Positions 3,397 through 42,609 of a stretch of 64,000 bases of DNA are shown piece by piece (the first letter of the stretch is position 1; each line of letters opens with the position of its first letter). Both the position numbers and the translations under genes were made by a program. The notes under the pieces are model-generated. The model had not been told where the DNA came from and ran no database searches. It saw nothing but the letters and a program-made list of their open reading frames with translations. The DNA lies in assembly GCA_963737655.1 (NCBI GenBank), contig CAVTTN010000002.1:4128001-4192000 (forward strand), given 5' to 3'. This stretch comes from an uncultured Planctomycetota bacterium (GTDB lineage Bacteria > Planctomycetota > Planctomycetia > Isosphaerales > Isosphaeraceae).

Positions 3397-5138
3397 ATGA
3401 TCGCACGGGCCCGGATGTTTTTCGCCCTGGCGGCCCTCGCCGCGGTCGGCCCCGGGCCGGCTTCGGGCGAGCCGTTCGCGATCGTCGTCGGGATCATTGG
3501 CGAGGGGGACTCGTGCCGACCGTCGGCCTCTCGGGAGGCGGCCGCGATTGTGGAAGCCCTGAGCCGGGGCGGTTTTCGTCGCGATCGTATCATTGCGCTC
3601 ACACGACCGGCCGCCGCCGGGTCGCGCGGGCCGACCCGGGCGAACCTTCTCAAGGTCGTCGAGGAGACCGCCGGACGCCTCCGGCCGGAGGATGGCCTGG
3701 TGATGGTCCTGATCGCCCCCGGGTTCCGCGTCTCCCGGCGAGACGTGGGCGACGTGATCGCCGACGATGTGGGCGGGGTGGTCCGGTTGGATGAAATCCG
3801 CGCGAAGATGGGACGGTCCCGGGGCGGATTTCGGCTCCTTGTGCTCGATGCGGGTCGAGCGGCTCCGCCGGCCTCGATGGCCGCGAGCCTGGAGGGCGTT
3901 CGCGGGCCGGTGGACCCGGCCTCGGGTTCGGTGCCGGTGCTCTTTTCGAGCGGGCCGGGCCGACGGTCGGGCGGGGCCGGAGCCGACGGGCGATCCGCGT
4001 TCTCAACCGCTCTCGTGGCCGCCCTCAACGGCGACGCGGACACCGACCGCGACGGGGCCGTGACCGTGAACGAGGCCCTGGGCTTCGTCCGGGCCCGGTC
4101 CGGCGACACCTCGCCAATGTTCGAAGGGGAGCCGGGGACGGAGTCCATGCTCCTGACCCTGACCGGCCGAGCGGGCCCCATCGTCGCCGACGGCCACAAG
4201 GCCGTTCGTCGGGGGGACGACCGGGGCGCGACGACCGCGTTCTCTCGCGCCTCCCAGATGGACCGGGATTCCGTGCCGGCGTTGCTTTCCCTCGCCCGGG
4301 TCCAGGCCAGGAAGGACCCCGACGCGGCCCGGGCGAGCTATCTCGACGCCCTCCGGCTCGACCCGGGCCTCGCCATCGCCCACCTGGAACTCGGCGACGT
4401 TCTGGCCGGACTCGGCCGGGACGCCGACGCGGAGGCCGAGTACCGGAAGGCCCGGGACCTCGGGCAGGATCGTCCCGACCCTCTCGAGCACCTCGGGCGC
4501 CTTTTTCTCAGCAATGCGAATTACGTCGGGGCGATCCGCGAGCTCGACCGGGTGCTCGACCGCGACCCGGAAAACGCCTCGGCCCTGGGCTGCCGGGGGC
4601 TGGCCCACTTCTGCCTCCGACATGCCGAAGACGCCCAGTCCGACCTCGACCGGGCCGTCGCCTTGCAGCCGAGGTCGCCGATCCTCCGCGTGAATCGAGG
4701 CGTGCTGGCCATGTCGCGAGGCCGTCTCGAGGCTGCGTCGACCGACCTGGAAGAGGCCATCTTCTGGGCCCGCGACCTTCGCGGACCGGACGCGCAGCAG
4801 GCCTATTTTAACCGGGGACACGTGCGGTTTCTGCGGAAGCAATACGCCATGGCCATCACCGACTGGGAAAAATCTCGGCTCTCCGCCCGGCCTCCTCGGT
4901 GGAAGACTTCGAGATCGAGGTCTGGATCGGCCGGGCCTTCGCCGCGACCGGCGACCTGGATTCCGCGCGGAAGGCGTTGGACCGGGCCCTCGCGTTAGAC
5001 GACTCGCTCGTCGAGATCTATGAGACGAGGGCCGCGATCCTCGAGGCCCTCGGCGACGATGAGCGTGCCCGGGCCGATCGCTTTCAAGCGGAAACCCGCC
5101 GGATCCGACCCCAGCCCATCGGCCACATTAAGCGGTGA
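3397..5138 (+). CDS. Exported degenerate caspase-domain (C14-like) + EF-hand-like + TPR protein; apparent 1-nt deletion near 4868-4872
   Basis: Signal-peptide-like N-terminus, caspase-like elements (AIVVGI, PTRANL, VLDAG, SAFSTAL), DTDRDGAVTVNE loop and TPR repeats. Adding one A to the A5 run joins ORF 3352..4998 to ORF 4899..5138 (DWEKISALRPASSVEDFEIEVW), which encodes further TPR sequence. The start at ATG 3397 is my choice. Confidence 0.75.
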
Positions 5139-5219
5139 TGGGAGTTGCGATTGCGTTGTTCATAACCGGAGGATCGGGCGCCCTGGGTAAACTGCGCGTG
5201 CAAATTGGACGGAAAGCTT

Positions 5220-5247
5220 TTGACAACATAGATAGGTCGGGTAAATT
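5220..5247 (+). promoter_or_regulatory. Putative sigma70-type promoter upstream of the giant gene
   Basis: TTGACA (5220-5225), a 16 nt spacer, then TAAATT (5242-5247), in a relatively AT-rich patch about 320 nt before the start. Confidence 0.4.
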
Positions 5248-5566: not shown

Positions 5567-8500
5567 ATGAGCAAGCGTCCCGATCGCGTCCGGACGGATA
5601 AGAAGACTCGTCGCGCGCTGGCCCAGCGCCTCTTCGTCGAGCAGATGGAGCCGCGGCAACTCCTCTCGGTGGTGAAGTTTACGGTGAACAGCACCGGGGA
5701 CACCGGCGGCATGCCGGACATGAACAACAAGGGCACGCTCCGCCAGGCAATCGACGGCGTGAATGCCCTGACGGGGGGGGATACCGGCGAGATCGACTTC
5801 GCGATCGCCGCCGGGCCTTTCACCATCACCCCGGGGGCGGCGAACCCCCTGCCGGCCCTCACGAATCAAGTTTTCATCGATGGATATTCGCAGACCGGTG
5901 CGTCGAGGAATTCCAACGCGATCGGCGCGGCAGACAATGCGGTCATCCTGATCGCCTTGAGCGGCACGAACCTTGGCAGTTCCGACTCTCTTCTCGAATT
6001 CGACGCCGGAGGCGCCGGAAGCACACTTCGAGGCCTGGCGATCGGCGGGGGGGCCCAGACCAATGGCGTTTATCTGAACGCAACGTCCAATGTCGTGGTC
6101 GTAGGCAATTTCCTCGGGACCAACGCCGCCGGGACTGCCGCGAATCCCAATGCCGAAGGCGTTCTGATCAAGGGCGGCTCGAACAATACCATCGGGGCGG
6201 TGGCGGGCGCGTCCACGGCACCGGACCTCAACGTCATTTCCGGGAACTCCGACGCCGGCATCGACCTGATGGCCACCACCGGCAACCGGATCACGGGGAA
6301 TTACATCGGGACCGCCGCGACCGGGACGTCGGGCCTGGCCAACCAGAAGGATGGCGTGGCCCTTCACGGCACATCCACGAACAACACCATCGGGGGGGCC
6401 GGCCCGCTCGGGAGGAACGTGGTTTCGGGCAACGACGCCGATGCCGGAGGGACGTCGAGCCACGGGCTCTTCCTTGCTGACGCCTCCGTCGCGAACAACC
6501 TGATCTCTCACAACTATGTCGGCACGAACGCCGCGGGGACAGGGGCGGTCCCCGACACCCAGGGGATCGTCGCCGAGGGACCCGGCAACACCCTCAGCGG
6601 CAACGTGGTCGCGGGCATCAGTCAGTTTGGCATCGGCTTCTTCACGGCCGGGGTGACTTCGGGCCTCGTCATCGGCAATTTCATCGGGACGGACCCCACC
6701 GGCACGACCAAGATCGCCAACGGGGCCGACGGCATCGCCCTGTTCCAGGGGGCCAATCACGTCACGATCGGCGGCCTGGCGACGACGACCGGCGCCTCGC
6801 CGGGCAACGTGATCTCGGGGAGCACCCCGGGCGTCAACATCCACGACACCGGGACCACCGCCAACGTGGTCCTCGGCAACCTGATCGGCACGGATTCGTC
6901 CGGGACCTCGGCGCTCGGCAATAGCACCGGGATCTTTATGACGGCCTCGGGCAATACCGTCGGGGGCACGGTCTCGGGATCGCGCAACGTGATCTCCGGC
7001 AACACCGGGGCCGGCGTGGCCCTGGTCACGAACGGGACGGTCCCCTCCAACAACGTGATCCTGGGCAACTACATCGGCACGGACATCTCGGGGGCGTCGC
7101 TCGTCCCGAATTCGACCGGGGTGGTCCTCTCGGGCGGTGCGAACGGGAACCTCATCGGCGGATCGGTCTCCGGCGCGGGCAACGTGATCTCCGGCAACGA
7201 TAACGCCGGGATTTCGATCAGCGGCTCGATGACGACGGGCAACGCGATCCAGGGCAATCGGATCGGGACCGACGTCGCCGGCACCTCGGCGATCCGCAAC
7301 GGGCTGGCCGGCGTCTCTCTGGACGGTGACGCGAGCAACACGATCGGCGGGACGGCTTCGGGCTCCCGAAATGTGATCTCGGGGAATAACGGAGTCGGCG
7401 TCTCCATTTTCGGAGGGGCCGCCGGCGACGTGGTCCTGGGCAATTACATCGGGTTGGATACCAACGGCACCTCGGCGCTGCCGAATTCGACGAATGGAGT
7501 CGTACTGGCCACCGGGGCGACCTCGAACACAATCGGGGGCACGGCGACCGGCTCCGCGAACGTGATCTCGGGCCAGGCCGACGCCGGCATCGACGTCGAG
7601 TCCTCGTCCAATGAGATCGCCGGCAACTTCCTGGGCACGAATGCCGCCGGAGACGCCGCGGTCCCCAACGGGACCTTCGGCATCCTCGTGAACGCGACGG
7701 GCACCACCATCGGAGGTTCGGCCACCGGATCGGGGAACGTAATCTCCGGCAACGGCATTCACGGGATCGACATCAAGGCCGCATCCACCCTGGTCCAGGG
7801 GAACCGGATCGGCACGAACGCGGCGGGGACGGCGGCGGTCTTCAACGGCACCGGCATGACGGGCTCGGGCATCCTCATCGAGGCGACCGGCGCGACGATC
7901 GGAGGGTCGGCCAGCGGTGCCGGCAACCTCATCTCGGGCAATTTGAGCGAGGGCATCGACATCGAGGCCGCCTCCGCCCTGGTGCTCGGCAACTCGATCG
8001 GCACCAACGCCGCGGGGACCGGCGGCATCGCCAACGGGGACAACGGCATCCTGGTCGCCGCCGACGGGAACACGATCGGCGGATCGGTCGCCGGCGCCGG
8101 CAACGTGCTCTCGGGCAACACCAAGTACGGGATCAATGTGCAGGCCGGGAGCCAGGTGATCCTCGGCAACCTCGTGGGGACGAACGCGACCGCCACGGCG
8201 GCCGTGGGCAACCATGACGGGATCCGGATCGACGGGGCTTCGACCGCCAACACCATCGGCGGGGCGGGCGCCGCGGGCAACACGATCTCGGGCAACGGCG
8301 ATCACGGGCTCGACCTCTTCACCTCGTCGAACCTCGTCGTCGGCAACAAGATCGGCCTCCTCGACACGGCGCATCCCACGCTCGGCAATGGCGGGTTCGG
8401 CATCGATGTCCAGGGGTCATCCAACACCATCGGGGCCGCGGGCGTCGGCAACACGATCAACGGCAACGCGACCGACGGCACCTACATCCAGGGCAGCTCG

Positions 8501-11500
8501 AACCTCGTCCAGGCGAACTATTACGGCACAGACGGCTCCGGGTCCTCGGGCCTGGGCAATGGGGGCGCCGGGGTCGATATCAACACCGGCTCGAACAACA
8601 CCATCGGCGGATCGACGGCGGCAACTCGCAACGTGATCGCCAGCGGCGGGCTTGCGGGTATCCGGCTTGAGAACGGGTCGAACCTCGTCGTCGGCAACCT
8701 GATCGGGCTGGACCCCTCCGGGACGACGGCCCTTCCGAACGGGGACCAAGGGGGCATTGATATCGAAACCGCGTCGGTCGGCAACACGATCGGCGGGACC
8801 GTCTCCGGGCTGAGCAACACGATCTCGGGCAACAGCACCTTTGGGATCGTCGTGCAGTCGTCCTCGAATCTGATCCAGGGCAACCTGATCGGATCGAACG
8901 GCTCGAAGGGCGCGGGGCTAGGGAATTTGGTGTCGGGGATCGTGATCGGTTTGGGGACCGGCAACACGATCGGCGGGACGGTCGCCGCGGCGGCCAACGT
9001 GATCGTGGCGAACCAGTTGGGAGGCATCCAGGTCGCGACGGGCCCGAACCTGGTCGCGGGGAACCTGATCGGCCTGTTCGCCGACGGCACGGTCCTCGGG
9101 AACACCGGCTTCTCGAACCAAGGTAACGGCGTGAGCGTCGGTGGCGTGACGGGCGTGACGATCGGCGGGGCCTCGGCGGCTTTCGCGAACACGATCGCCG
9201 GCAACACCGCCGCCGGGGTTCGAGACCCCAACAGCTCGACCGGGCTGGTGGTGGAGTCGAATTCCATCTTCTCCAACGGCGGCCTGGGCATCGACCTCGG
9301 CTCGGCCGGTGTCACGCCCAACGGCACGGCCGGGATCACCAACTACCCCGTTTTCCAGGCGTTCTGGAACCCGACGACGAGTCTCGCGGCGTTTTCCGGG
9401 ACGTTCATCGGCTCGCCGAACACGTCGTACACGCTCCAGTTCTTCTCCGACCCCAGCCCCGACGGCTCCGGCCACGGCGAGGGCAAGACGCTCCTGGCCT
9501 CGCAGACGGTCATGACCGACGGCTCGGGTCAGGCCGTGTTCCTGATCACCGAGTCCGCCAACCCGATCACGATCGGCACCGTGGTCTCAGCCACAGCCAC
9601 CGAGCCGACGCTCGGCACCTCGGAATTCGCCCTGAACAGCACCACGGCCGACCTCCGGTACACCGTTCTCTCGACGGCCGACACCGCGACCCCGGGCACT
9701 CTGCGGACGGCCCTCATCAACGCGAACGCCTCCGGCACTGCCCAGACGATCCTCTTCGCGATCCCCGACCTTGACGGCACCCCCAAGGTCATCCAGCTCA
9801 CATCGGCCCTGCCGGCGATCACTCAAAAAATCGATCTCAACGGCTATTCCGAATCGGGCGCCTCGGCCAATACGAATCCCCTCAACCAGGCGGATAACGC
9901 GGTCCTCAAGGTCGTCCTGGACGGTTCGAACCTCGCCTCGACGAACCAGTACGGCCTCCAGTTCGCCACCGGAGGGATCGGCTCGACCATCCGAGGTTTG
10001 GCGATCGTCGGGTTCGGCACGACCGGATCGGCGGCCATAGAGCTGGATTCGGACGCCACGGGGACTCACTCCCTGATCACCGGCGTGTTCCTGGGCCTGA
10101 ACCCGGACGGGACGACGACGAACGCCGCGAATACCACGGGTGTCCTGGACAACGCCAACGGCGTGGTGATCGGCGGGACGACCCTGGCTGATCGCGTGGT
10201 CGTCTCGAACAACACCGGCGTGGGCCTGATCCTGAACGGGTCCGGAGGGCTGGTCCAGGGGGCATTCCTCGGCCTTTCCGTCGATGGCACGACAACGCAC
10301 GGCAACCCGATCGGCGTGATGGTCTCGGGAGATTCCGCGACGATTGGCGGGACGGCGGCCGGCTCGGGAAATCTTTTCGCGGGCGCAACCACGGAAGGGT
10401 TGAACCTCGCCTCCAACGGCGACCTCGTCGAGGGCAATAGCTTCGGCTTCGACGCCGCGGGGACTTCCAGCCTCCCCAACCAGATCGCCGTCCTCGTCTC
10501 GGCCGGCACGGCCAGCTCGATCGGAGCGACCGTCGCCGGCGCCGGCAACGTCATCGCGAACAGCGGCGGCGACGGGATCAAGCTGACCTCGGCGAGCACC
10601 CCCGGGACCTTGATCCTCTCCAATTCGATCTTCGCCAACGGCGGCCTGGGGATCGACAACAAGGCCCTCACCCCTCCCGTCCCGTCGATCACCTCCGCCT
10701 ACCATTTCTCGGACAAATCGATCCTCGAAGGGACGCTCCAGGGCGCCGCGAGCACCTCGTACATCGTCCAGTACTTCGATAACGCCTCGGGCGTCTCGGG
10801 TCAGGGGAAGACCCTGCTGGGGACCGAGGTCTTGACCACCGACGCCACGGGCTCGGCGACGATCTCGGCCACGGTCGGCGCGATCGCCCTGGGGGACGTG
10901 GTCACGGCCACGGCCTCCGAGACGACCAACGGCACCTCGAACTTCTCGACGGCCGCCGTGGTCGTCGATGCCCTGAAGGTCACGAGCAACGCGGATTCCG
11001 GGGCCGGGTCGCTCCGCCAGGCGATCGTCAACGCGAATCGCGACACCGCGCCCAACACCACGATCACCTTCGGGCCCGGTCCGTTCGCGATCCAGCCGAC
11101 GACCCCCCTGCCGACCCTGACCCATCCGGTCCTGATCGACGGTTTCAGCGACGGCACCTCCTCGCAGAACACGGCCGACACCTCGCACGCCTCCAACGCG
11201 TCCATCGACATCTTCCTGGATGGGGCGCTGGAGGCCGGCGGGTCGAAGGTGGGCCTGGATTTCGGCCCGGGGGCGGTCGGGAGCACGGTCCGGGGGCTGG
11301 CCATCGGCGATTTCGCCTCGGCGGGAATCCTGGTGGACCCGTCCGGCGGGTCGATCACGATCGCGGGCGACTACCTCGGCACCGATGCCTCGGGCAACGT
11401 CGCCAAGGCCAACGGCGTGGGGGTGAGCGTCTCGGCCGGCGCGACCGGCGTGACCATCGGCGGTTCCTCGCCGGCCTCAAGGGTCGTGATCGCCGGCAAC

Positions 11501-14500
11501 AGTGGCGCGGGGATCGTCCTGGCCGGAGCCTCGGACGTCGTCGAGGGGGATTTCCTCGGCCTGGGCGCCAACGGATCGGCCCTCGGCAACGGTGGCGACG
11601 GCGTCAGCATCTCGGGCGCGAGCAACACGATCGGCGGGACGTCGGCCGCGCTCCGCGACGTGATCTCCGGCAACCTGGGGAACGGGATCTCGATCTCGGG
11701 CTCGCCGGCGCAGTTCAACGTGATCGTGGGCGATTACATCGGCACGGGCCTGCTCGGGACCTCCGCCGTCCCCAATGCGTTTTCGGGCGTGAACGTGGCC
11801 TCCGGGGCGACGTTGAACACGATCGGCGGGGTCATTAGCCTGGGTTTCGGCGACGTGATCGCCGGCAACACCGGGGCCGGCGTGACCTTCCAGGGGATGG
11901 GCACGTCGTCCAACCTGCTCGCCGGCAGCTTCATCGGCACCAACTCCACCGGAGGCGTGGCCCTGGCCAACTCGGGCGGGGGCGTCAAGGTCTTCAACCT
12001 CGACTCGGGCGAGACGATCGGCGGGAGCAAGGCCTCGGGCCTGGGCAACGTGATCTCCGGCAACGCCGGCTCGGGCATCCTGATCGACCCGACCTCCGGC
12101 GACGTGATCCAGGGGAACCTCATCGGCCTGGCCGCCGACGGGACGACCCCGCTGAATAACGCCGTGAACGGGATCTACGTCCTCGACTCGACCAGCATCA
12201 CCATCGGCGGATCGGCGGCGACGGGCAACGTGATCTCGGCCAACGGCGCGGCGGGGGTCCGAGTCGAGGGTTCCGGCGCGATCGTGATCGCCGGCAACCT
12301 GATCGGCACGGACAAGACGGGCCTGGTGGCCCGGGGGAACGTGGCTGGAGGCGTGGTCGTCCTGGACGACGTTGCGAACGTCGGGTCGTCGGCCATCACG
12401 ATCGGCCCGGACAACGTGATCTCGGGGAACTCCGACGAGGGCGTCCTGATCCAGGGGCCGTTCACCACCGGGGTGACCGTCTCGGGCAACACGATCGGCC
12501 TGGCGAGCGACGGCTCGACCCTCCTGGGGAACGTCCAGGGCGCGACCCGCAACGGCGAGGGCCTGGACCTGATCAACACGTCCGGGAACCTGATCGGCGG
12601 ATCGTCTGGGAACGTGATCTCCGGAAACAACGGCGACGGCATCGCCTTCTCGGCCAACGCGAAGCAGAACCTTGTTCAAGGAAACACGATCGGCCTCGAT
12701 TCCACCGGGACGGCCGCCCGCCCCAACGGCGGCGATGGGGTGGACGTCCTCTCGGGCGACGGAAACACGATCGGCGGCCTGTCGGCGGCGTTCCGCAACG
12801 TGATCTCCGGGAACAGCAAGGATGGCCTGGGGCTGTTCACCTCCAATGACCTGGTGATCGGCAACTATCTGGGCACCACTGGTGCGGGCACGGCCGCCCT
12901 GGGCAATGGGCGCTCGGGGGTCGTTGTCGGGGGGAATAACAACACGGTCGGCGGCTCGACGACGGCCGGCGCCGGCAACGTGATCTCCGGCAATCAAGGC
13001 TCGGGCGTGGCGGTCACCAGCACGGGCGTCGTGGTCGCCGGCAACTTCATCGGCCTGAGCGCCTCCGGGGCGTCCAAGCTCGGCAACACGCTGGACGGCG
13101 TGACGGTGGCCTCGGGTGCCTCGGCCACGATCGGCGGGAGCACGGCCGACCTGGCCAACCACGTCGGCGGCAACGCCCGAGACGGCATCCGCCTGACCGG
13201 CACCACGAACATCCTCGTCCAGTCCAACCTCGTCGGCACCGACGCCAGCGACTCGGCGTCGCTCGGAAACACGGCGATTGGGATCAATCTGACCGCCGGC
13301 TCGACCGGCAATACGATCTCCGGCAACACGATCGGTCACAGCGGGACCAGCGGCGTCCTCGTCTCCGGCGACCAGAACCTGATCTCCGGGGGGCGGATCG
13401 ACCACAGCGGAGGGTTCGGCGTCTCCATCCCGGGCGGCTCCAACACGGTCTCGGGCCTCACTTCGACGAACAACCAGGGCGGAGTGCTGATCCAGGGCAG
13501 CTCGAACCTGGTCGCCTCCAGCGCGTTGACCAACAATTCGACGGGCGGCGGTGCAGGGGTTTCGATCTCGGGAGGCTCGGCAAACACGATCGGCGGGGCC
13601 CTGGGTTCGACGGGCGACACGATCACCGGGAACGCGGACGGCGTGTTGGTCGGCTCGGCCATGAACCTGATCGTCGGCAACACGATCCGCCTGAACACCG
13701 CCTCGGGCGTCCATGTGACGGCCGCGGGCGTCACGGTCGGAGGGACGACCTCCTCGGCGGCCAATCAGATCGGCTCCAACTCGGTCGATGGCGTGAGGAT
13801 CGATGCGGCCACCGGGGCCGTGGTCGTCGGCAACTTCCTCGGTGTGAAGTCCGACGGCACGACGGCCGACGGCAACACCGGGGCCGGGATTTCGGTCGTC
13901 TCCGGCGGCTCCAACAACTTCGTGGGCGGGGCCGCGACCGGCTCGGGCAACATCATCGCCCACAACGGCGGCCCGGGCGTCTCGCTCGGCGGCGGCCTGA
14001 ACCTCGTCGCCGGCAACTCGATCACGGCGAACGCAACCGGCGGCGTCCTCGTCGCGGCCGGCACCGGCAACACGATCGGCGGGACGGTCGCGACGGCCTC
14101 GAACCTGATCTCCGGGAATACCGGGGTCGGGGTCGAGGTCGATGCGGCCGGGACGCTCGTGATTGGCGACCTGGTCGGCACGAGCCTCGATGGCAAGACG
14201 GCCTTCCCGAACACCGGCGACGGCGTGAAGATCACGGCGGGATCGGCGACGATCGGCGGCACCTCGGGCGCGGGCGATACGATCTCGGGCAACTCGGGTG
14301 CGGGCGTTCATGTCGTGGGGACCTCGGGTGCCCTGATCGCCGGGAACCTGATCGGCGTCTCCGGGAGCGGGAATGCGGCCCTGGGGAACGCGCTCGGCGG
14401 GGTGATCGTCGATGGCTCGACCGGCGTGACCATCGGTGTGGGGAACGTGATCGCCGGAAACGCCGTGGTCGGCGTGGCGTTCCTGAACTCCGCGAACAAC

Positions 14501-32500: not shown

Positions 32501-35289
32501 TCGGCGGGATGGCCACCGTGAACGGTTCGGCCGTGATCGCCGGCAACCTGATCTCGGGCAATCGCCTCTACGGGGTGGCCCTGCTCAACGGGACGTCGGG
32601 AGACGTCCTCGCCGGGAACTTCATCGGCCTCGACAAGTTCGGCTCGGGGGTCGTGGCGAACGAGCAGGCCGGCGTCTTCATCAACCAGTCCGGCGGCAAC
32701 ACCATCGGCGGCAACTCGGCCTCGTCCCGGAACGTGATCTCCGGCAATGGCGGGGCGGGCGTCCAGATCAACGGGTCCCCGGCGGACCACTCCGGCAATC
32801 TGATCGCCGGGGACTTCATCGGGACCGACGCCTCGGGGAACCTGCCTCGAGGCAACAAGTTCGACGGGGTCCAGATCACCGACTCGCCGAACAACATCGT
32901 CGGCGGGACCTCTCCGTCCTACCGGGACGTGATCTCGGCGAACCTCGGGGCGGGCGTCCACATCGGCGGCTCGGGATCGACGAACAACGTCGTCGCGGGC
33001 GACTACATCGGGACGGACTTCACGGGGATCTACGGCAACGCCAGCTCCGGAGTCTCCCTGGGTAACCAGCTCGATGGCGTCTTGATCGATTCGGCCTCCT
33101 TCAACCTGGTCGGCGGCCTGTCGCCCGCGTCGCGGAACATCATCTCGAACAACATCCGCGACGGGGTCGGGATCAATAACTCCTCCTCGGGCAACGTCGT
33201 CGCGGCGAACTGGATCGGCCTGGATGCCCTGGGGATCAACGCCCAAGGTAACCTCGGCGACGGCGTGTACGTGAGCGGATCGACGGGCAACCAGATCGGC
33301 GGCGCGGGCCTGCTCGGCAACGTGATCTCAAGGAACTTCGGCAACGGAGTCCGCCTGACCGGAGAGTCCAGCCAGGGAGGGGCCAACCGGGTCCAGGGGA
33401 ACTTCATCGGGACCACGGCCTACGGGGCTGTCGCGACCATCTTCGGCGTGACCATCCCGGCGGCGGCCCCCAACCAGCTCGACGGCGTCCTCGCCGATAG
33501 CGCCGTGAACGACCTGATCGGCGGCCCCGGCAACGGCGTGGGAAGCACCCGGTCCACCCTGGGCAACGTGATCTCCGGCAACCTGGGTAACGGCGTCCAC
33601 ATCCTGAACTCGACCCAGGGCATCCTCGTCCAGGGCAACGACATCGGACTCGACGCCTCGGGCGCCTCGCTGACGGCCAACGCGGTCGATGGCGTCTTCC
33701 TGGACAACTCGGCGGCCGTCATGGTCTCCGACAATCTGATCTCCGGCAACGGCCAGGACGGCGTCGATATCCTGGCCGGTCCGGGCGGGGCGGCGGCGGC
33801 GGGCCACTCGGTCCTCCATAACCGGATTGGCACCGACTTCAGCGGGACCGTTCGCCTGGGCAATAGCGCCGCCGGGGTGTTCGTGAACAACTCGTCGAAC
33901 AACTCGATCGGTGGGATCAACGCGGCGGTCGGGGTGACCCCCTCGGCCGGCAACGTGATCTCGGCGAATGCTTCGGCCGGCGTGGTCATCTTCGGGACGC
34001 CCTCCACCGGCAACCAGGTCCTCGGCAACTTCATCGGCACCAACGCCGCCGGGACGGCCGCCCTGGGCAATGCCATCGGCGTCTACGTCCTGAACACCAC
34101 GAAGAACACCATCGGCTCGGACCGGGTCGGCGGGGGCAACGTGATCTCGGGCAACGACCAGGCGGGCGTCCAGATCGAGGGCACCACCTCGATGTACAAT
34201 CAGGTCGAGGGGAACCTCATCGGCTCGGACGCCACCGGGTCATACCTGATCAAGGACTCCACCAACCCCGAGCAAGACCTGAACAACGACTATGGCCGCC
34301 AGGGCTTCGGCGTCCTCGTCCTGAACTCGCCGATGAACCTGATCGGGCCGACGCTGCCCACCCTCCCCGGATTCAGCCAGTATTCGGCCAACCCGGCCAC
34401 GCTCGATCCCGGCGCCGGGAAGAACGTGATCTCGGGCAACGTGGTGGGAGTCCAGGTGTTCGGCATCGCCTCATCGAACAACGTGATCCAGGGCAACTAC
34501 GTCGGCACCGACCAGTCCGGCATGAGGCCGCTGTCGGTCTCCTCGACCGGCCAGGCCACCGGGCAGACGACCGCCCCGGCCGGCAACTACACCGACGGCA
34601 TCTATGTCAACAACTCCGGCCAGGTCACCGGCAGCGACACCAAGTCCAAGGGGCACAACTCGATCCTCGATAACCTGCTGACCGGCAACGGCGTCAACGG
34701 CATCCAGATCTACGGGCCTCAGTCGATCAACAACGTGATCGAGCTGAACTACATCGGCACCGACAAGACGGGGGGGACCTCGATGCTCCCCAGCTACGTC
34801 GGCTCCGACGGGCGGACGATCGTCGATGGCAACCAGTACGGGGTGCTCATCAACGGGTCCTCGTACAACACGATCGGGGCGGCGGGCGCCGGCAACCTGA
34901 TCTCGGGCAACCGAGACACCGGCATCTACCTGCTCGGGCCCAACTCGGCCACGAATTCGCAAACCCAGGGCAACAACAGCACGCTGAACGTCATCCGGGC
35001 GAACCGGATCGTCCGCAACGGGCAGTTCGGCGTCCTGGAGTACAACGTGCCGGTCGGGCCGCCCCTGGAAAACATCATCGACATCACCTCCAAGTCCGGG
35101 AAGAACTACTTCTCGGGCAACGCCCAGGACATCCGGCCGTTCAACGGACAGACCAAGCCGGACACCGGGGCGCCCCAGTCCAACAACCCGTATCGCAAGA
35201 AGACCAGGAAGACGAAGAAGACCGCGACCGCCAAGGCCGCCCACCCCAACCGGGCCCCGGGCTTCCATCCCAAGAAGGGAGGCAAGTGA
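5567..35289 (+). CDS. Giant planctomycete surface/extracellular protein with LEPRxLL-type N-terminus and right-handed parallel beta-helix repeats (~9,907 aa if the frameshift at ~19910 is repaired)
   Basis: N-terminal RRALAQRLFVEQMEPRQLLS and well over 100 degenerate NTIGG...NVISGN...GN.IG.D..G units. ORFs 5567..19972 and 19984..35289 join by adding one base at 19909-19913 (GSK-G-PDASLGLAAGTGNGIYLL), which restores the repeat register. The second ORF has no convincing start of its own. Confidence 0.88.
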
Positions 35290-35436: not shown

Positions 35437-38049
35437 ATGACCTCACGAGGGACCCCCCCCGACGACCAGGACCCGCTGGAAACCCTGGCCCAGTTCTCGG
35501 CCTCGGACCCGGCGCGTCCCCCCGTCCGGCCCACGGCCGAGATGACGCCGCCCCCGACGGCTCCCCGGGAGATGGACAATTCCCCGAGCACTCGCGATCC
35601 TTCGAGAACCCCGGACGACCTCGTCGCGGAAACCGTGCCGGTCACCCCGGCCGGATCCGGATCGACTTCCGGGTTCTCCGCCGCCCTGGGGCTCTCGGAC
35701 AAGCCCCGACCCGGCCAGATCATCTTCGACCGCTACAAGGTCGAGCGCGAGCTGGGCGAAGGCGGCATGGGGTCGGTGTGGCTCGTCCGTCACCTCGAGC
35801 TCGACGCCGATCGCGCCTTGAAGCTCATCGTCGCGGAGATCGCCGCCGACGAGCAGGTCCGCGCCCGCTTCAAGCGCGAGGCCCGGGTCATGGCCAAGTT
35901 GACCCACCCCAACGCCGTGACCGTCCACCACTCGAAGCTCGCCCGCGACTCCGCGTTCATCGAGATGGAGTACGTCCGAGGCCAGAGCCTCAACAAGATC
36001 CTCAAGCCCGGCGTCCCCATGCCCCTGGACTGGGTCGCGCGGATGGTTGAGCAGCTCTGCGACGTCCTCCAGGCCGCTCACGACCTCGGGATCGTCCATC
36101 GCGACCTGAAACCCTCCAACCTTATGCTGCTGGACGGTCGCCAGCCCGGCAAGGAACTCCTGAAGGTCCTCGACTTCGGGATCGCCAAGATCCTCACCAG
36201 CGATGGCACCGACACGGACGAGCTCCGCACCCAGACCAATACCTTCATCGGAACGGCCCATTATTCCAGCCCGGAGCAGATCCGCGGCTCGAAGATCGAC
36301 GCCCGCAGCGACCTGTACTCCACCGGCGTGATCCTTTACGAGTTCCTCACCGGACAGAGGCCGTTCAGCGGGACGGCGCAGATGCTCATCTGCGACCACC
36401 TGACCACCCCGCCTTCCCCGTTTGCCCTGAAGAACCCGCATTGCCGGGTGCCGGAAGCCGTCGAACGGGTCGTCCTGAAGTGCCTCTCGAAGGACCCGGA
36501 CGACCGTCCCCAATCGGCCCGGGAACTCTCCGAGGAGTTCCTCGACGCCGTCCAGCGCTCGACGACCGAGGGCAAGGGCCCCTCCGAGACTCGGGGGCAA
36601 AAATGGTCCGACCCCGGTCGGACCGAGGCGGCTCCGGCCGTCATGGCCCCGGTCCGTCAGCCCACCCGCCAGGGTTCGTGGCGAGACGCCTCGCAGGCCG
36701 GTTCCCTCTCCGCGAACGCCTACGACGCCACCGAGAACGCCAGCGTCGTCCAGCCCCACGAATACCCCGGCCTGACCATGACTCCCAAGGGCTTCATCCC
36801 GGGAGTCAAGAAGAAGAAGGCCGTGGGTCCCCTGATCACCTTGATCCTGATCCTGCCGCTCCTCCTGCTAGTCACGGCCGTCGGGATTCGCCTGGCGACC
36901 CGCGACGGGGGCCAGAAGCGGCTGCGAGAGGGCGAGGTTCCGCCCGACGACGGCACGACGCAATCCGGCAAGGGCTCGGCCGACAAGGGCAAGCCCTACC
37001 TGCTCAACGCCAACGCCAAGCAGTTCCTCCACCCCTGGGCCATGGATTCCTATCGCCCGGTGGAGTCCGAAGGGACGGACGACGGCTGGCCTCGGTTCCT
37101 GGAACGCATCCCCGAGTACATCGGCGCGCCGATCCGCTACTATCTCGACAAGCCCACCGGCCGGTATTATCCCGAGAAGTACGAGCCCGAGGGCGATCTG
37201 GCCGAGGATGAATGGCCCAAGTACCTCCGCCGCAAGACCGACGACGTCCGCTTCGTCCGGATCCCCGGCGGCGTCTTCCGGCTCGGGACCGGGGACAAGG
37301 TGCCGATGGCCCCCGGGGACTCGTCCAGGCCGGCCCATCGCGTGCGAATCACCGGCTTCTACATCCAGGAGCACGAGGTCACCAATCGCGAGGTCAATGA
37401 GTACGATCGGACCCTGCCGGCCCAAAATCGACTCACGTATTGGCAAAGTTATTTCAAGGACGCCCTGATCCGCCTCCCGGACGCCGCGCCGAATCACCCC
37501 GCCACCATGCTCAGCCATCGCGAGGCGGAGCTGTGCGCGGCGATCTACTTCAACGGACTCCTGCCGACCGAGGCCCAGTGGGAGTACGCCGCCCGGTCCC
37601 GGATCGGCCTGGAGAACCTGTTCATCTGGGATTGGCGGCCCGCCGACGACCCGATTCGCAAGAAGGAGGCGCGCGACCTCTGCGCGATGAACCGCGTGGG
37701 AGAGGGCGAGTGGCCCACCGTCAGCGTCGGGACCTTCTCCCGGACCGATGTCACCAAGGACGGCGTGATCGACATGAGCGGCAACGTCAGCGAATGGTGC
37801 CGGGACGTCATGGAACCCTATCAGCCCGACGAGGATCCGCACCCGAGGAATCCGACCGGCGCGAAGCGGAGCGACGTGAATTCCGACGACTACGTCTTTC
37901 GGGGAGGATCGGTCGAATCGATCGGCCCCGAGGAGTTGTACGCCACCCGTCGGATGAAGATGACCGGAGGCCAGCGCTCGCCGGTCGTCGGCTTCCGGCT
38001 GGTCCTGGAGACGCCCGACTCGCCGGGCAAGGCCGGATTGAAGCCCTGA
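35437..38049 (+). CDS. Membrane Hanks-type Ser/Thr kinase with a C-terminal FGE-sulfatase (SUMF1-like) domain
   Basis: Kinase motifs LGEGGMGSVW, RALK, HRDLKPSN, DFG and SPEQ; a TM helix after KKKK; then LPTEAQWEYAAR, DMSGNVSEW, RGGS and GFRLV. Confidence 0.93.
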   Translation: MTSRGTPPDDQDPLETLAQFSASDPARPPVRPTAEMTPPPTAPREMDNSPSTRDPSRTPDDLVAETVPVTPAGSGSTSGFSAALGLSDKPRPGQIIFDRYKVERELGEGGMGSVWLVRHLELDADRALKLIVAEIAADEQVRARFKREARVMAKLTHPNAVTVHHSKLARDSAFIEMEYVRGQSLNKILKPGVPMPLDWVARMVEQLCDVLQAAHDLGIVHRDLKPSNLMLLDGRQPGKELLKVLDFGIAKILTSDGTDTDELRTQTNTFIGTAHYSSPEQIRGSKIDARSDLYSTGVILYEFLTGQRPFSGTAQMLICDHLTTPPSPFALKNPHCRVPEAVERVVLKCLSKDPDDRPQSARELSEEFLDAVQRSTTEGKGPSETRGQKWSDPGRTEAAPAVMAPVRQPTRQGSWRDASQAGSLSANAYDATENASVVQPHEYPGLTMTPKGFIPGVKKKKAVGPLITLILILPLLLLVTAVGIRLATRDGGQKRLREGEVPPDDGTTQSGKGSADKGKPYLLNANAKQFLHPWAMDSYRPVESEGTDDGWPRFLERIPEYIGAPIRYYLDKPTGRYYPEKYEPEGDLAEDEWPKYLRRKTDDVRFVRIPGGVFRLGTGDKVPMAPGDSSRPAHRVRITGFYIQEHEVTNREVNEYDRTLPAQNRLTYWQSYFKDALIRLPDAAPNHPATMLSHREAELCAAIYFNGLLPTEAQWEYAARSRIGLENLFIWDWRPADDPIRKKEARDLCAMNRVGEGEWPTVSVGTFSRTDVTKDGVIDMSGNVSEWCRDVMEPYQPDEDPHPRNPTGAKRSDVNSDDYVFRGGSVESIGPEELYATRRMKMTGGQRSPVVGFRLVLETPDSPGKAGLKP

Positions 38050-38116
38050 GGGGCCTTGGCGACTCGGCGAGAGCGTCACGAGGCGTCCCCTCCGCCCGTC
38101 TTCTGAAAGAAGAGTC

Positions 38117-38162
38117 GCCGGTCCGAGGCGATCCCCGACGGGGGGGATCGCCTCGGACCGGC
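38117..38162. repeat. Perfect 20-bp inverted repeat (hairpin) between the kinase and caspase genes
   Basis: GCCGGTCCGAGGCGATCCCC (38117-38136), a 6 nt loop, then its exact reverse complement (38143-38162). Confidence 0.85.
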
Positions 38163-38181
38163 CGCCGTCGAGGGCCTCGCC

Positions 38182-41100
38182 ATGCGTCGCTCGCTGATCG
38201 CCGTCGCCCTGACGCTATGCGTAGGCCAGCCCGCCGGGGCACAGGCCCCGATCGCGGCCCCGGCCGATCGGCCCCCGCAGGTCTGGGCCGTCCTGGTCGG
38301 GGTGCAGAAGTATGACGACCCGGCAATCCCCGCCTGCGCCGGCGCCGTGGCCGATGAGGTCGCTCTCGCCGGCTGGCTCCAGAAGTCCGCGCGTTGGGAC
38401 TCGGCCAACATCTTGCGGATGGACGAGTTCGGCCAGCCCACCCACGGGCTGCCCTCTCTCCCGGTCGGCAACCTGCGACCAACCCGCGAGAACCTCGATT
38501 TCGCGCTCAAGGGCTGGCTTCGGTATCGGGTCCGCCCCGGCGACGTCGTCGTCTTCGCCTTTGCCGGTCACGGGGCGGTCGCCCCGGCCGACCCGGGGGC
38601 GAAGGCCGAAGCCCCCCGCGAGATCCTCCTGCCCATCGACGCCCGCAAGTCCGACCTCGCCCGGACCGGCTGGTCCCCGGAAGACGGCCTGGACGAGCTG
38701 GCCACCCTGTCCCCTCGCGCCGTGCTCTGCCTGATGGATACCTCGCTCCACGGCCGGGGCCAGACCGTCGCCCCGCCGGACGACCCGAAGGCCACCCTGC
38801 GATTCCTCCGCCGCCTGGCCCGATGGCCGGGGGTCTCCGCCTGGATGGCCGCCGACGGCCGACCCTCCGCCGGACCGGGCCCCGGCCCGAACTCGCACGG
38901 CCCGTTGACCGCCGCCCTGCTCCGCGGCCTGGGCGACTCGCCGAACAACGTCCGGGCCGCGCTGAACGTCATCTTCAGCGATGAGACGCTCAAGGCCCAG
39001 GGATTTCGCCCTATCGGCGGAGTGGCCCCCGAGGTCACCCTCTGGCCTTCTCAGCTCAAGAGGCCCGAACTCTTCGTCCCTCGGCTCCTCCTTCAGCAGG
39101 GCCACGCCGCGGCGATTACCGGGATGGTCGCCACTCCCGACGGCGAGGAGCTCATCACGTCCAGCGAGGATTCCACCGTCCGCCTCTGGAGGCTCTCCGA
39201 TCGCAAGCTCCTGCGGGTCTTCGGCGACCACCTCGTCGGCGTGAAGGCCGTGGGGATGACGACCGACGGCCACCTGATGGCCAGCGGCGATGGCAAGGGC
39301 CGGATCAACGTCCGAGACCTCACCCGGCCGATCGAGATGGGGATGAAGTCGGTCCCCCGACAGCCGCATTCGGTCGCGATTGAAGCCATCGAGTTCCTGC
39401 CCGAAGGCCGCGCGTTCGTCACGCTCGACGCCAAGGGGAACACCGTGGCCTGGGACGCTTCGGCCGCTGAAATCGCCACCCGCCCCTTGATGGAAGTCGC
39501 GTGCCGACGGCTCGCCACGGCCACTCTTCCGGGCCCGGTGGCGCTGGTGGTCGTGGGTTCCGATGGCCAGGTCCGCCTCTTCGGCAAGGACCTGGCGGCG
39601 GTCGGCGTGCTCGATGGCCCTCCCGAGCGCGTCACGGCCCTGGCCCTCTCGCCCGACGGCACCCGCGCCGCCGCCGGGGACGACTCCGGCCAGCTCTGGA
39701 TCTACGACCTGAAGACGAAAACCGTCACCGCCAAGCCGAAGTTCGAGGAGACCGTCGGCCTCTTGAAGTTCTCCGAAGACGGACGGCTCCTCGTGGCGTC
39801 GGGGGACGGCCTGACCGTCTTCGACCCCGACCGCAACGGGGCACGCACCGCCCTGGAGTTCGACGGCCCGGCGGCCTCCGCCTCGTTCTCTCGCGACGGT
39901 CGATGGCTCGCCGCGTTGTCGAAGATCGGCACGCTTCACCTCTGGTCCTTCGGGGCCGACGGCCGCCCCTCGCGGACAGTCTTGGCCGGCGCCGAGGGGG
40001 CCGGCTCGTTCCGGTCCGTGGCGATCGCGGCCGACTCGCGGACGGTCCTCGCCGGCGAAGCCTCGGGCGGATTCCGCCAGTGGGAGCTGCCCGACGGCGG
40101 CCTCCGCTCCCGGGTCGCGTCCCACCGAGGCCGGGTCCGCTCTCTCGCGGTCGCCAAGGGGGAAGACGGCCAGGGCCGCTACCTCCTCCAGATCACCCAC
40201 GACGGGATCGCTCAGCTCTGGGACCTCCAGGAGATCAAGGACGGTCAAACCGTCCGCACCCTCCAAGGGCTGTGGACCTCCGCCGCGTTCCTCCCTGGTG
40301 ATGCCTCGAAGCTCCTGATGACTCGCGACGCGGACTCCGGCGGGACCGTGGTGATGGTCGAAGCGGACTCGGGCAAGGTCGTCCGCGAATACCCCCGTCC
40401 CCCCTCCGCCGACGGCGGGGTCTCGGAAATCGACTTCGACCGCGTGACCGTCTCGCCCGATGGCGCCCGGGTCGCCGCCGCCGCGGCCGATGGCCGCCGG
40501 CCGATCGTCTGCGTCTGGAAGATCGAGGGCGGGCCGCCCGCCGTCCTCGCCCGCCACACCGGCTCGCCGACCGTCGTCGCGTTTTCGAGCGACGCGAAAT
40601 CGCTGCTGACCGCCGGCAAGGACGGCCTGACGATGCTCTGGGACATGGCCAAGGCTCCGGAGGTCGCCCCGGTGATCCTCGCCGCCTCGGTCCCGGGGGA
40701 AGTCATCACGGCCGCGGCCCTGGCCCCGGCCGGGCCGACCCGGATCGTCACCTGCCGCTACTCCGCCGACGACTACAAGACGCGGATCGAGACCTGGGAC
40801 CTCCCCCCCAACGGCGGCAAGCCGACGCCGATGCCCGTCCCCGGCGGGCTGATTGAAGGGATGGTCCCGGCCCTGGCCTTCACGGCCGACGGGCGATGGC
40901 TCGCGGCGTCCGGCCAGAACCGGACGATGAACGTCTGGGAGACCACCAACGGAGGCCGAAAGCTCGCCGTCCGCCCAAACCAGTTTCACGACGAGCAGGT
41001 CAACGCGCTGGTCGGCTGGCCCAAGGGGGCGATGTTCGCCTCGGGCTCGGACGATACGACGGTCCGGCTCTGGGCGCCCGAGGCCGCCCGGCCCGAGGAC

Positions 41101-42609
41101 CAGCAAAAGGTCGTCCGCTGGACGCTCCTGGGCAGCATGTCGGCCGCCCCTCCCGAGTTCGACGGCCCCCCCAAGGCCCGGACCTCTCCCGAATGGGTCC
41201 TGTTCACGCCCGACGGCAAGTTCGATAGCTCGCTTCAGGGCGAGCACCTCGTCACGTTCGTTCAGGACCAGGAAGTCCGGCCGCTCGACCAGTACCTCGA
41301 ATCCCACTACCAATCCGGCCTCGGAGATTCCCTCCGGCAAGGGAAGGCGGTCCCGGCCGTCCTGACGACGCCGAAATCCTCGGTGGCGATCGACCCGCCG
41401 CCCACCGTCTCTCCCGATCGCGAAACCCGGCTGACGATCTCCATCACCGACGCGGCGCTCAAGCAACGGGACCTCCGGCTCTACCACAACGATCAGCCGG
41501 TGCAGACCGTCGAGGACTTCACTCCGGTCCCGGGGACGGATCGTCGGTTCGTGGCCACGGTCAAGCTCCGGGGCGGGACGAACCGCTTCTACGCGATGGC
41601 CGGCTCTCGCGAGGGCGTGGATACGCGGTCGAAGGACGTGCAGGTGGAGTTCGACGCGCCCGAGGACCGAGGGCGGATCCACGTCCTGGCGCTGGGGATC
41701 AGCGAGTACGCCAAGAACGCCTTGAAGTTCGCCCATGCCGACGCCCAGTCCATCGCCGAGACCCTCGGCGATCGAGCCGTCGCCGCCGGTCGATTGCCGG
41801 GCCTCCTGATCGTCCTGAAGAACACGGAGGTCGGCGAAACGCGACTCGACGCCGAGTTCCGCCGGCTCCGGGCCGAGATCCAGGGCCATCCCGAGGATAC
41901 CATCGTCGTCTTCCTCGCCGGCCATACCGGAGTGGTCAAGAAGCAGCCCGACAACCTCCGATTCAGCCTGCTGATGCCCGATTTCCCGTTCCCCGACGAG
42001 ACGCTGAAGGTCGCCTCCGTCCGGGGACCCGCCGAAGGAGTCCTCCCGGCCGACAAGGACTCGACGTATATCCCCTATTACATCCTGTCGAGGAACCTCG
42101 CGCGGATCGATGCCTTGCAGAGGCTGGTGATCGTCGATGCGTGCCAGGCCGAGGCGATCCTGAGCGACCAGGGCGTGTTGCAGGTCCAGCGGTTCATGGA
42201 AAAGGGGGCCAGGAAGGCCAAGACGTCGTACCTCCTGGCGGCCCGCCGGGGTGAGCCGGCCTACGAAGACGCGGACCTCCGCCACGGCTTGCTGACCTAC
42301 ACCCTCCTTCGCGGCCTTCAGGCGCCGAAGCTCGAACCCCTGCCCCGGGCGGTCCCCGATCTGGATCGGCTCCCCTCCGCCGATCTCGACGGCGACGGGA
42401 CGATCACGACCCAGGAGCTTCGCGACTATACCGACCAGACGCTGCCGCTCCTGGCCCAGAATTATCCCCGGGGCGACACCCGAGGCGAGGGCAGCGTCCC
42501 CCGGGGCACCGGCCCGATCTCGGCCCGGAGCCGGAAGCTCTGGCTTCGCTCGGCCGACGTCTCCTTCCCCCTGCTCTCCGGGGGCTCCAAGCCCAAACCG
42601 GCCGAGTAG
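38182..42609 (+). CDS. Exported caspase(C14)-WD40 propeller-caspase(C14) protein with an EF-hand-like loop
   Basis: Signal peptide (…QPAGA/Q); N-terminal domain WAVLVGV, PTREN, FAGHG; many WD40 repeats (GH…SEDSTVRLW, SGSDDTTVRLW); C-terminal domain HVLALGIS, FLAGH, IVDAC, HGLLTY and DLDGDGTITTQE. Confidence 0.9.
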   Translation: MRRSLIAVALTLCVGQPAGAQAPIAAPADRPPQVWAVLVGVQKYDDPAIPACAGAVADEVALAGWLQKSARWDSANILRMDEFGQPTHGLPSLPVGNLRPTRENLDFALKGWLRYRVRPGDVVVFAFAGHGAVAPADPGAKAEAPREILLPIDARKSDLARTGWSPEDGLDELATLSPRAVLCLMDTSLHGRGQTVAPPDDPKATLRFLRRLARWPGVSAWMAADGRPSAGPGPGPNSHGPLTAALLRGLGDSPNNVRAALNVIFSDETLKAQGFRPIGGVAPEVTLWPSQLKRPELFVPRLLLQQGHAAAITGMVATPDGEELITSSEDSTVRLWRLSDRKLLRVFGDHLVGVKAVGMTTDGHLMASGDGKGRINVRDLTRPIEMGMKSVPRQPHSVAIEAIEFLPEGRAFVTLDAKGNTVAWDASAAEIATRPLMEVACRRLATATLPGPVALVVVGSDGQVRLFGKDLAAVGVLDGPPERVTALALSPDGTRAAAGDDSGQLWIYDLKTKTVTAKPKFEETVGLLKFSEDGRLLVASGDGLTVFDPDRNGARTALEFDGPAASASFSRDGRWLAALSKIGTLHLWSFGADGRPSRTVLAGAEGAGSFRSVAIAADSRTVLAGEASGGFRQWELPDGGLRSRVASHRGRVRSLAVAKGEDGQGRYLLQITHDGIAQLWDLQEIKDGQTVRTLQGLWTSAAFLPGDASKLLMTRDADSGGTVVMVEADSGKVVREYPRPPSADGGVSEIDFDRVTVSPDGARVAAAAADGRRPIVCVWKIEGGPPAVLARHTGSPTVVAFSSDAKSLLTAGKDGLTMLWDMAKAPEVAPVILAASVPGEVITAAALAPAGPTRIVTCRYSADDYKTRIETWDLPPNGGKPTPMPVPGGLIEGMVPALAFTADGRWLAASGQNRTMNVWETTNGGRKLAVRPNQFHDEQVNALVGWPKGAMFASGSDDTTVRLWAPEAARPEDQQKVVRWTLLGSMSAAPPEFDGPPKARTSPEWVLFTPDGKFDSSLQGEHLVTFVQDQEVRPLDQYLESHYQSGLGDSLRQGKAVPAVLTTPKSSVAIDPPPTVSPDRETRLTISITDAALKQRDLRLYHNDQPVQTVEDFTPVPGTDRRFVATVKLRGGTNRFYAMAGSREGVDTRSKDVQVEFDAPEDRGRIHVLALGISEYAKNALKFAHADAQSIAETLGDRAVAAGRLPGLLIVLKNTEVGETRLDAEFRRLRAEIQGHPEDTIVVFLAGHTGVVKKQPDNLRFSLLMPDFPFPDETLKVASVRGPAEGVLPADKDSTYIPYYILSRNLARIDALQRLVIVDACQAEAILSDQGVLQVQRFMEKGARKAKTSYLLAARRGEPAYEDADLRHGLLTYTLLRGLQAPKLEPLPRAVPDLDRLPSADLDGDGTITTQELRDYTDQTLPLLAQNYPRGDTRGEGSVPRGTGPISARSRKLWLRSADVSFPLLSGGSKPKPAE

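Follow-up and report, generated by a model that had tools for sequence, protein, structure and literature searches.

A receptor-kinase gene paired with a dead/live caspase gene in Isosphaeraceae: a possible envelope sensor with links to type VI secretion

The locus and its conserved core

The window analysed here is a stretch of 64,000 nucleotides from an uncultured member of the Isosphaeraceae, a family of planctomycetes that live in soil (assembly GCA_963737655.1, contig CAVTTN010000002.1, positions 4,128,001 to 4,192,000). A preliminary description, made from the letters of the window alone, proposed that four of its genes, here called A to D, form one envelope cluster. The four genes do lie on the plus strand, as described, across positions 3397–42609. 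The conserved core is smaller: gene C, which encodes a membrane kinase, is directly followed by gene D, which encodes a protein with two caspase-like domains, and the other two genes are not part of one conserved unit. The best reading of the C–D pair is a sensor of the kind that controls type VI secretion systems (T6SSs) through a kinase, built from different parts. The two core genes are as follows.

35437..38049, plus strand: gene C, Hanks Ser/Thr kinase, transmembrane (TM) helix and non-catalytic domain of formylglycine-generating enzyme (FGE) fold; conserved core (Pfam, alignments, TM scan)
38182..42609, plus strand: gene D, probable signal peptide, pseudo-caspase domain (about residues 30–296), WD40 propellers, putative immunoglobulin (Ig)-like linker, active caspase domain with EF-hand-like loop; conserved core (Pfam, alignments)

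The TM helix and FGE-fold domain claimed for C are both present. Pfam places a Pkinase domain at residues 100–365 and an FGE-sulfatase domain at residues 606–856, and a hydropathy scan finds a single strongly hydrophobic helix starting at about residues 460–471. The catalytic residues of the kinase (K129, E148, D223, N228 and D246) are invariant in 13 aligned rows. The FGE domain was rejected as a formylglycine-generating enzyme because no conserved Cys occurs in its catalytic region, residues 820–858, in 41 aligned sequences (pieces with stops or short cover were excluded; of the listed rows, one of 41 was dropped beforehand). C resembles the T6SS kinase PpkA of Pseudomonas joined in one chain to the FGE domain of TagR, the activator of that kinase. 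One homologue of C, beside a pretoxin-HINT gene, has two kinase domains ahead of the FGE domain (L055:3511-6903, genome G001).

Protein D carries caspase-like domains (PF00656) at both termini, the C-terminal one above the Pfam cut-off, with WD40 repeats between them. The C-terminal catalytic dyad, His1248/Cys1321, is kept in nearly all relatives (His in 45 and Cys in 47 of 48 aligned rows). At the N-terminus the His is present in 9 and the Cys in 1 of 46 rows; since the dyad is lost yet many near-invariant residues are retained, this is a conserved dead domain. For both alignments pieces with stops or short cover were excluded, and of the 48 listed rows three (N-domain) and one (C-domain) were dropped. 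EF-hand-like loops had been described in A and D; A and the C-terminal caspase of D have one, and the first caspase domain of D does not. The loop of D, of the form DxDxDG..E, matches EF-hand_5 below the cut-off (expectation value E 0.0025), and its two ends, Asp1401 and Glu1412, are invariant in 48 rows. Asp1187 and Asp1319 are each kept in 46 of 48 rows and Glu1362 is also conserved; these are residues that we take to correspond to the acidic S1 pocket of Arg/Lys-specific members. Their conservation suggests an acidic pocket in the live caspase domain, which is probably Arg/Lys-directed. When the PDB was searched by sequence with the D caspase profile, the best 60 of 214 matches were all calmodulins, picked up by way of the EF loop, and a single-sequence fold of residues 601–1475 reached a predicted local distance difference test (pLDDT) score of 34. 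Characterised C14 enzymes other than caspases favour Arg/Lys, according to the available part of PMC5756287. One homologue of D, in genome G007 (L053:11866-16602), has also lost the C-terminal dyad, though C and VgrG/PAAR genes are adjacent.

The signal peptides of A and D had been judged by eye. A 19-residue hydropathy scan flagged neither; D orthologues do have an N-terminal hydrophobic stretch, and that of A is weaker. The periplasmic location of D and of the FGE domain of C is presumed in what follows.

Range and gene neighbourhood

The neighbourhood of D was mapped at 55 loci in 47 genomes and 29 genera, with about 9 to 80 kb examined per locus. Three loci come from the window's genome, 25 were chosen blind on D score alone, and 27 were added so as to favour long contigs and a wide range of genera. 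A locus at a contig edge (G021) was taken off the map. C lies directly upstream of D at 50 of the 55 loci and at 23 of the 25 blind ones. This adjacency, the preserved active dyad and the family-wide loss of the first dyad support the module of extracytoplasmic caspase and receptor kinase proposed in the preliminary description.

A conserved operon of all four genes, by contrast, is rejected. Gene A is present beside C–D in the window's locus only (1 of 55), and a search of 104 other family genomes with its caspase-like domain gave no close homologue (best match 50 bits). A co-oriented beta-helix gene upstream of D occurs at 2 of 55 loci. Relatives of B lie near D at 26 of 55 loci (10 of the 25 blind), usually as smaller genes downstream of it.

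Three further genes recur around the pair. Gene E, convergent with D, is found at 40 of 55 loci, and gene F, which encodes a putative outer-membrane barrel, at 29 of 55. Genes of B type adjoin F at 23 of their 26 loci. The order C> D> <E F> <B (arrowheads give direction) recurs across genera. T6SS core genes, identified by Pfam, lie at 26 of 55 loci in 17 genera, among them 13 of the 25 blind loci. For comparison, random 60-kb windows of the window's genome contain a T6SS gene in 3.6% and a beta-helix gene in 11% of draws. At 23 of 55 loci, which fall on many branches of both the C and the D tree, T6SS core, c5 (see below) or vWA genes lie 3–9 kb upstream of D. Among all 76 matches to D, short contigs included, TssK is within 30 kb in 22 and F within 30 kb in 29. 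The two associations do not always coincide: 13 loci have B and no T6SS genes, and 13 T6SS-linked loci have no B in the stretch examined.

Among the 105 family genomes that are at least 70% complete, 61 contain the N-terminal domain of D. Co-occurrence was counted against three partners.

D and T6SS: together in 48 genomes, D alone in 13, T6SS alone in 17, neither in 27
D and E: together in 59, D alone in 2, E alone in 9, neither in 35
D and F: together in 61, D alone in 0, F alone in 22, neither in 22

Full-length D among the best 80 of 478 matches belongs to Tundrisphaera, Tautonia, Paludisphaera, Singulisphaera and planctomycete metagenome-assembled genomes. In 300 genomes from the rest of the phylum the N-terminal domain of D matches generic caspases only (best 78 bits, against 157–324 for the three copies of the window's genome). 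Close C–D homologues were found only in Isosphaeraceae among the genomes searched; the WD40–caspase architecture itself is widespread. Distances between C proteins and between D proteins are correlated over 38 loci (Spearman 0.52–0.58), a figure in which co-evolution is not separated from shared ancestry.

The genes c19 (with a HEAT-like repeat) and c20, both divergent and of no clear family, recur in T6SS clusters near C–D (G035, G010a, G069, G068 and G104a); the window's genome has them in its third T6SS cluster (L042:10745-13422; L256:147-3440).

The putative surface partners: E, F and B

Neither E nor F lies in the window; both are encoded elsewhere in its genome. In E, WD40 repeats are combined with a weakly scoring PDZ domain (E 0.026) and a caspase-like end in which the His is kept and the Cys is replaced by Val (consensus of seven rows). 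It is, judged from this consensus, a WD40/pseudo-caspase protein. F has no Pfam match at E ≤ 1. Its predicted model (pLDDT 69.6) matches the polypeptide transporter FapF (Foldseek E 1.5e-9; VIA Z 22.0, root-mean-square deviation 3.0 over 230 aligned residues) at 10–12% identity. The N-terminal part of F is of low complexity and lies outside the model, and the F consensus contains a PPTG (PTG-like) motif. Only eight weak matches to F were found in the 300 genomes from the rest of the phylum. The window's genome (G000) has four copies, L257 (G000:C2:1871937-1873211), L259, L260 and L261, each beside E, a beta-helix gene or both. The one at 4.80 Mb lies close to a gene with FHA and kinase domains.

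The largest gene of the locus is the beta-helix gene B.

5567..35289, plus strand: gene B, giant Gly/Asn-rich beta-helix protein with basic leader carrying a LEPRxLL-type motif and basic C-terminal tail; recurrent, variable partner (Pfam, GC content at third codon positions (GC3), hydropathy and composition)

The product contains 20% Gly and 10% Asn and matches the beta-helix family PF13229. Its described size of about 1 MDa holds only if a frame change is an error. As assembled, B consists of two open reading frames (ORFs) in different frames, 5567–19972 and 19984–35289, and the GC3 signal moves between frames near 19910. The error rate of the assembly was estimated from 150 sampled proteins of relatives, 112 of which match the window's genome; 63 genes passed the identity and coverage filter, and nine of these are frameshifted, or one per 9.7 kb. 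A single frame change in 29.7 kb is what assembly error would produce, so that a single protein of about 9,900 residues and 0.93 MDa is the probable product of B; two real genes are disfavoured by this rate and by the GC3 frame switch. The product of each ORF forms a protein cluster with a single member. A second giant beta-helix region of the same genome (G000:C2:1247413-1283000) exceeds 28 kb and holds an open frame of 7,804 codons.

A planctomycete export motif had been reported in B. Residues 21–35 do match Planc_extracel (PF07595; E 4.6e-4), at 20.2 bits against a cut-off of 25.5, and a LEPRxLL-type motif is visible in many relatives; the first 1000 residues have no NCBIfam match. The link from the locus to LEPR proteins stands as a neighbourhood at the 26 loci already given. 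Most of the relatives near D are about 900–4,400 residues long, lie downstream and face the outer-membrane barrel gene, and the window's B is the longest among the mapped loci. Lys and Arg are concentrated at the ends of B (10 in the first 35 and 12 in the last 40 residues, against 2–8 per 200 in the body). A strict C-cap motif is shared by the window's B and three of 20 F-adjacent beta-helix proteins. A profile built from the C-termini of these 20 proteins did not single out B, whose best domain scored 108 bits, against 179 for an F-adjacent paralogue and 118 for another. The genome contains at least 13 beta-helix loci of B type, and basic tails also terminate paralogues far from any D.

Type VI secretion genes in the window's genome

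Three C–D pairs are present in the window's genome, and all three kinase–FGE copies found adjoin D. The copy at C2:1.88 Mb is flanked by E and F on one side and by VgrG, DUF6931 and PAAR genes on the other, and the copy at C2:5.28–5.31 Mb lies with B, F and E. The locus in the window is a rearranged copy of the module that keeps C–D and a very large B, with E and F available in trans. TssA, B, C, F, G, K and L, Hcp, ClpV, ImpE, VgrG and a double-FHA protein are encoded in scattered clusters. The FHA protein lies in a T6SS cluster and has homologues at 8 of 55 loci. TssJ and the periplasmic IcmF_C domain of TssM were not found in this genome, which is 87.7% complete, and its TssM-like proteins are shortened (539–610 residues).

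Beside TssK in these clusters lie large membrane proteins of a family here called c5, whose dead caspase domain is recognized by hhalign (probability 97.8). They occur at 15 of the 55 mapped loci, in many of them upstream of C, some with vWA or carboxypeptidase-regulatory domains, and adjoin TssK/TssL and the shortened TssM (L251:10041-13883, that is G000:C2 at about 4.000–4.004 Mb; L253; L254). The c5 proteins are candidates for replacing the missing periplasmic part of the T6SS membrane complex.

Gene A, spacers and flanking genes

The remaining features of the locus are accessory.

3397..5138, plus strand: gene A, degenerate caspase-like domain (His to Pro, Cys to Gly), EF-like loop and TPRs; local accessory gene, not conserved with C–D (Pfam, GC3, hhalign, alignment)
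5220..5247, plus strand: sigma70-like promoter match in the A–B gap, 10 of 12 positions (consensus match only)
38117..38162, no strand assigned: 20-pair hairpin in the 132-bp C–D spacer, with a terminator-like score on the minus strand (hairpin scan)

By GC3, A changes frame near 4868 and reads on in another frame to a stop at 5138. Pfam detects its TPRs and does not detect its caspase-like N-domain at E ≤ 1. That domain aligns to the D caspase profile (hhalign probability 87) and to active caspase–TPR and caspase–FGE proteins of relatives, whose His and Cys are Pro and Gly in A. The 428-bp gap between A and B holds two sigma70-like sites where 0.1 are expected; a four-gene operon is not evident because of this gap and the promoter-like match inside it. 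The strong hairpin between C and D has no repeat in the genome and none in relatives, and the spacer sequences are not conserved; it could uncouple or stabilize the two messages.

Two genes on the minus strand converge on D: a small TPR gene (42635–43132) and a gene for an H+-translocating pyrophosphatase with a long N-terminal extension (43432–46236, 934 residues). Elsewhere in the window, 700–3197 (minus strand) carries a gene like the RuBisCO large chain (weak PF00016 match), a Gfo/Idh/MocA oxidoreductase and a xylose-isomerase-like TIM barrel, which together look like a sugar catabolism operon with a RuBisCO-like protein. A double-length gene of UvrA type at 50915–57404 (plus strand) is split into two overlapping ORFs, probably by a further assembly frameshift.

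Structure prediction of a possible C–D contact

A complex of three chains was predicted, comprising the FGE domain of C and both caspase domains of D; the WD40 region was left out and three controls were run. The complex scored 0.41 against 0.00 for the best control, with at least 70% of contacts agreeing between runs and partner pLDDT of at least 84. When the chain holding the Ig-like linker and live caspase was replaced, the score fell to 0.00. Of 157 solved pairs 116 reach the mark for a positive result, as do 2 of 215 mismatched pairs. The pass of this complex is weak, since few solved pairs (18 of 157) but both mismatches reach the mark with a score of 0.60 or less. The prediction weakly supports contact between the FGE domain and the live-caspase half of D; whether C and D bind at all we regard as an even question.

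A model for C–D function and its alternatives

The C–D pair may be a trans-envelope sensing pair of Isosphaeraceae. (i) D would be exported to the periplasm and serve there as a scaffold in which WD40 propellers are flanked by a dead and a live caspase domain. (ii) C would be a kinase of the inner membrane and would bind D through its periplasmic FGE domain, the live-caspase half of D being the most likely site. (iii) Binding of D, as periplasmic ligand or switch, would cluster C and activate it, in the way that TagR acts on PpkA in Pseudomonas. (iv) Input would come from a surface module consisting of E, of F as a FapF-like barrel in the outer membrane, and of B as an exported filament of beta-helix type. 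(v) The usual output would be the T6SS, probably through the FHA protein of the T6SS cluster.

The scheme as a whole, an envelope sensor that feeds the T6SS and is coupled to filament export, stands at the midpoint between belief and doubt, and so, taken on its own, does the T6SS as the target of C–D. Export of B through F is plausible but falls somewhat short of even. Cleavage of B by D, with which the preliminary description had the active caspase mature or release the giant protein, is unlikely. A more specific version is equally unlikely. In it a surface-contact relay for the T6SS is built from caspase folds: a filament of up to 1 MDa would leave through the FapF-like barrel, one live and several dead caspase domains (in D, E and c5) would read its state, and the live caspase would switch the fusion kinase of PpkA–TagR type that fires the T6SS.

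Several observations weigh against the proposed sensor. The window's own C–D copy has no T6SS gene nearby, the nearest lying about 90–115 kb away. Thirteen of the 61 genomes with D have neither TssK nor TssC, including the well-assembled G093 (99% complete, two contigs) and G130 (95%, three contigs), and the 17 genomes with T6SS only have no D match. The sampling itself may favour the T6SS: the later 27 loci were picked after TssK distances were known, the co-occurrence counts are inflated by kinship, and the background comes from one genome. That genome has about 111 kinase-like and at least 13 beta-helix loci, so chance alone would produce some of the adjacency (11% for beta-helix genes). 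Of the five PP2C_2 matches in the window's genome, none is near C–D or the T6SS clusters. B has its own promoter-like site. As for export, a COG4313 channel fits the F model about as well as FapF does (VIA Z 21.3), so that an importer matches as well as an exporter, and a passenger of 10,000 residues is a difficulty for a putative route through a barrel of the 12-strand type. As for the protease, position 1184 of D, which we presume to align with the pocket Cys of metacaspases, is Ala in 43 of 48 rows. An intact dyad, moreover, is no proof of activity, as the available text of PMC5756287 states.

The strongest alternative turns on export. In it F exports B, D is needed for export or trims the basic ends of B, E acts as chaperone and C only reports, the T6SS not being the target. 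We consider this improbable. It agrees with the presence of F in all 61 and of E in 59 genomes with D, with the 13 loci that have B and no T6SS genes, and with the PTG-like motif kept in F. The Lys/Arg-rich ends of B would suit an Arg/Lys protease, and in the part of PMC5557850 that was available, secretion through FapF in Pseudomonas depends on FapD, a cysteine protease of the periplasm. The same counts include 22 genomes that have F without D, basic tails also occur on paralogues far from D, 13 T6SS-linked loci lack B in the stretch examined, and in the tail-profile test some paralogues outscored the window's B.

The pair might instead respond to envelope stress in general, with a cytoplasmic target unrelated to T6SSs or filaments and with neighbours that are envelope and conflict genes gathered in shared islands; this has a somewhat smaller chance still. 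C–D stands without any partner at several loci (G002, G016, G133a, G130, G104b and G090b), WD40–caspase proteins are widespread, and the available part of PMC3501461 counts WD40, TPR and FGE with the domains that most often accompany caspase homologues in prokaryotes. Such a gathering sits poorly with the 23 loci at which T6SS core, c5 or vWA genes lie within 3–9 kb upstream of D on many tree branches, and with the gene order recurring across genera. Very improbable is a third account, in which D would be a toxin, a protease passed to neighbouring cells, with the FGE domain as its immunity or inhibitor domain: FGE-like proteins are reportedly (by the title of one study) T6SS immunity proteins, the complex prediction, weak as it is, favours the live-caspase half of D, and VgrG/PAAR genes adjoin C at four loci (G007, G010b, G071 and G000b), yet D has a probable Sec signal and no VgrG, PAAR or Rhs part, keeps one fixed architecture over 29 genera, unlike polymorphic effectors, and faces an FGE domain fused to an intact kinase.

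Relation to known systems

The proposed sensor has its closest counterpart in the TagQ/TagR–PpkA–Fha1 pathway of the Pseudomonas aeruginosa H1-T6SS. In the available part of PMC13713981, residues 127–359 of periplasmic TagR are FGE-sulfatase-like and the membrane kinase PpkA does not become active unless TagR is present; phosphorylation of Fha1 by PpkA then starts T6SS assembly. Shared features are the inner-membrane Hanks kinase and the periplasmic FGE fold. The T6SS context is found at 26 of 55 loci, the window's not among them, and an FHA protein lies in the T6SS cluster of the window's genome. Here, in contrast, the FGE domain is fused to the kinase, and the partner is a caspase/WD40 protein and not a lipoprotein or ABC transporter. 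No PP2C gene lies beside the kinase, TssJ and the periplasmic TssM domain were not found in the window's genome, and some genomes have C–D and no detected T6SS. Pfam identifies no TagQ or TagST genes in window positions 3397–46236, where no dedicated search was made.

The Fap system of Pseudomonas (FapF and the C39 protease FapD; PMC5557850, available in part) likewise brings together a barrel of FapF/COG4313 type, an exported cysteine protease and Gly/Asn-rich repeat substrates, putative in the present case. Here the protease is multidomain and of the caspase clan, a receptor kinase belongs to the set, the putative substrate is a beta-helix protein of 900–9,900 residues whose leader is of LEPRxLL type, and F is only 10–12% identical to FapF. 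The C39 peptidase and the subunits FapABCE were not found at the mapped loci, where the neighbours are caspase-fold WD40 and beta-helix proteins.

D shares with prokaryotic caspase homologues (metacaspase-like proteins and orthocaspases, PF00656) the His–Cys dyad, WD40/TPR partners, signal-like N-terminal helices and frequent dead copies; intact dyads are present in 64% of the homologues of Planctomycetes (available parts of PMC3501461 and PMC5756287). It differs in that dead and live domains flank propellers in one chain and that the gene is fixed behind a kinase–FGE gene. B has the plan of LEPR-XLL (Planc_extracel, PF07595) proteins, a basic leader with an ExxEPRxLLS motif followed by parallel beta-helix repeats; its motif scores under the Pfam cut-off and its length is the largest among the mapped loci. 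MoxR–vWA ternary systems (PMC7159879) and toxin-releasing caspases (PMC3482391) were also considered; in their available parts these papers describe neither this gene set nor a kinase–FGE partner. No description of the C–D gene set was found in the literature searched, whose coverage mostly excludes subscription journals.

Significance

Most bacterial caspase homologues, above all the dead copies, have no known job. Here a protein with live and dead caspase domains is fixed to a receptor kinase in at least 27 genera. Cultured relatives exist (Paludisphaera, Tautonia and Tundrisphaera), so that the partner, substrate and output of D are testable. The apparent natural fusion of PpkA with a TagR domain fits the contact proposed between TagR and PpkA. 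The neighbourhood offers a candidate pore for the giant LEPR-XLL proteins of planctomycetes and candidate regulators for T6SSs that seemingly do without the usual outer-membrane anchor. If the surface-contact relay were true, it would give pairs of bacterial caspases and pseudo-caspases a concrete job in signalling and would suggest an export route for LEPR-XLL proteins.

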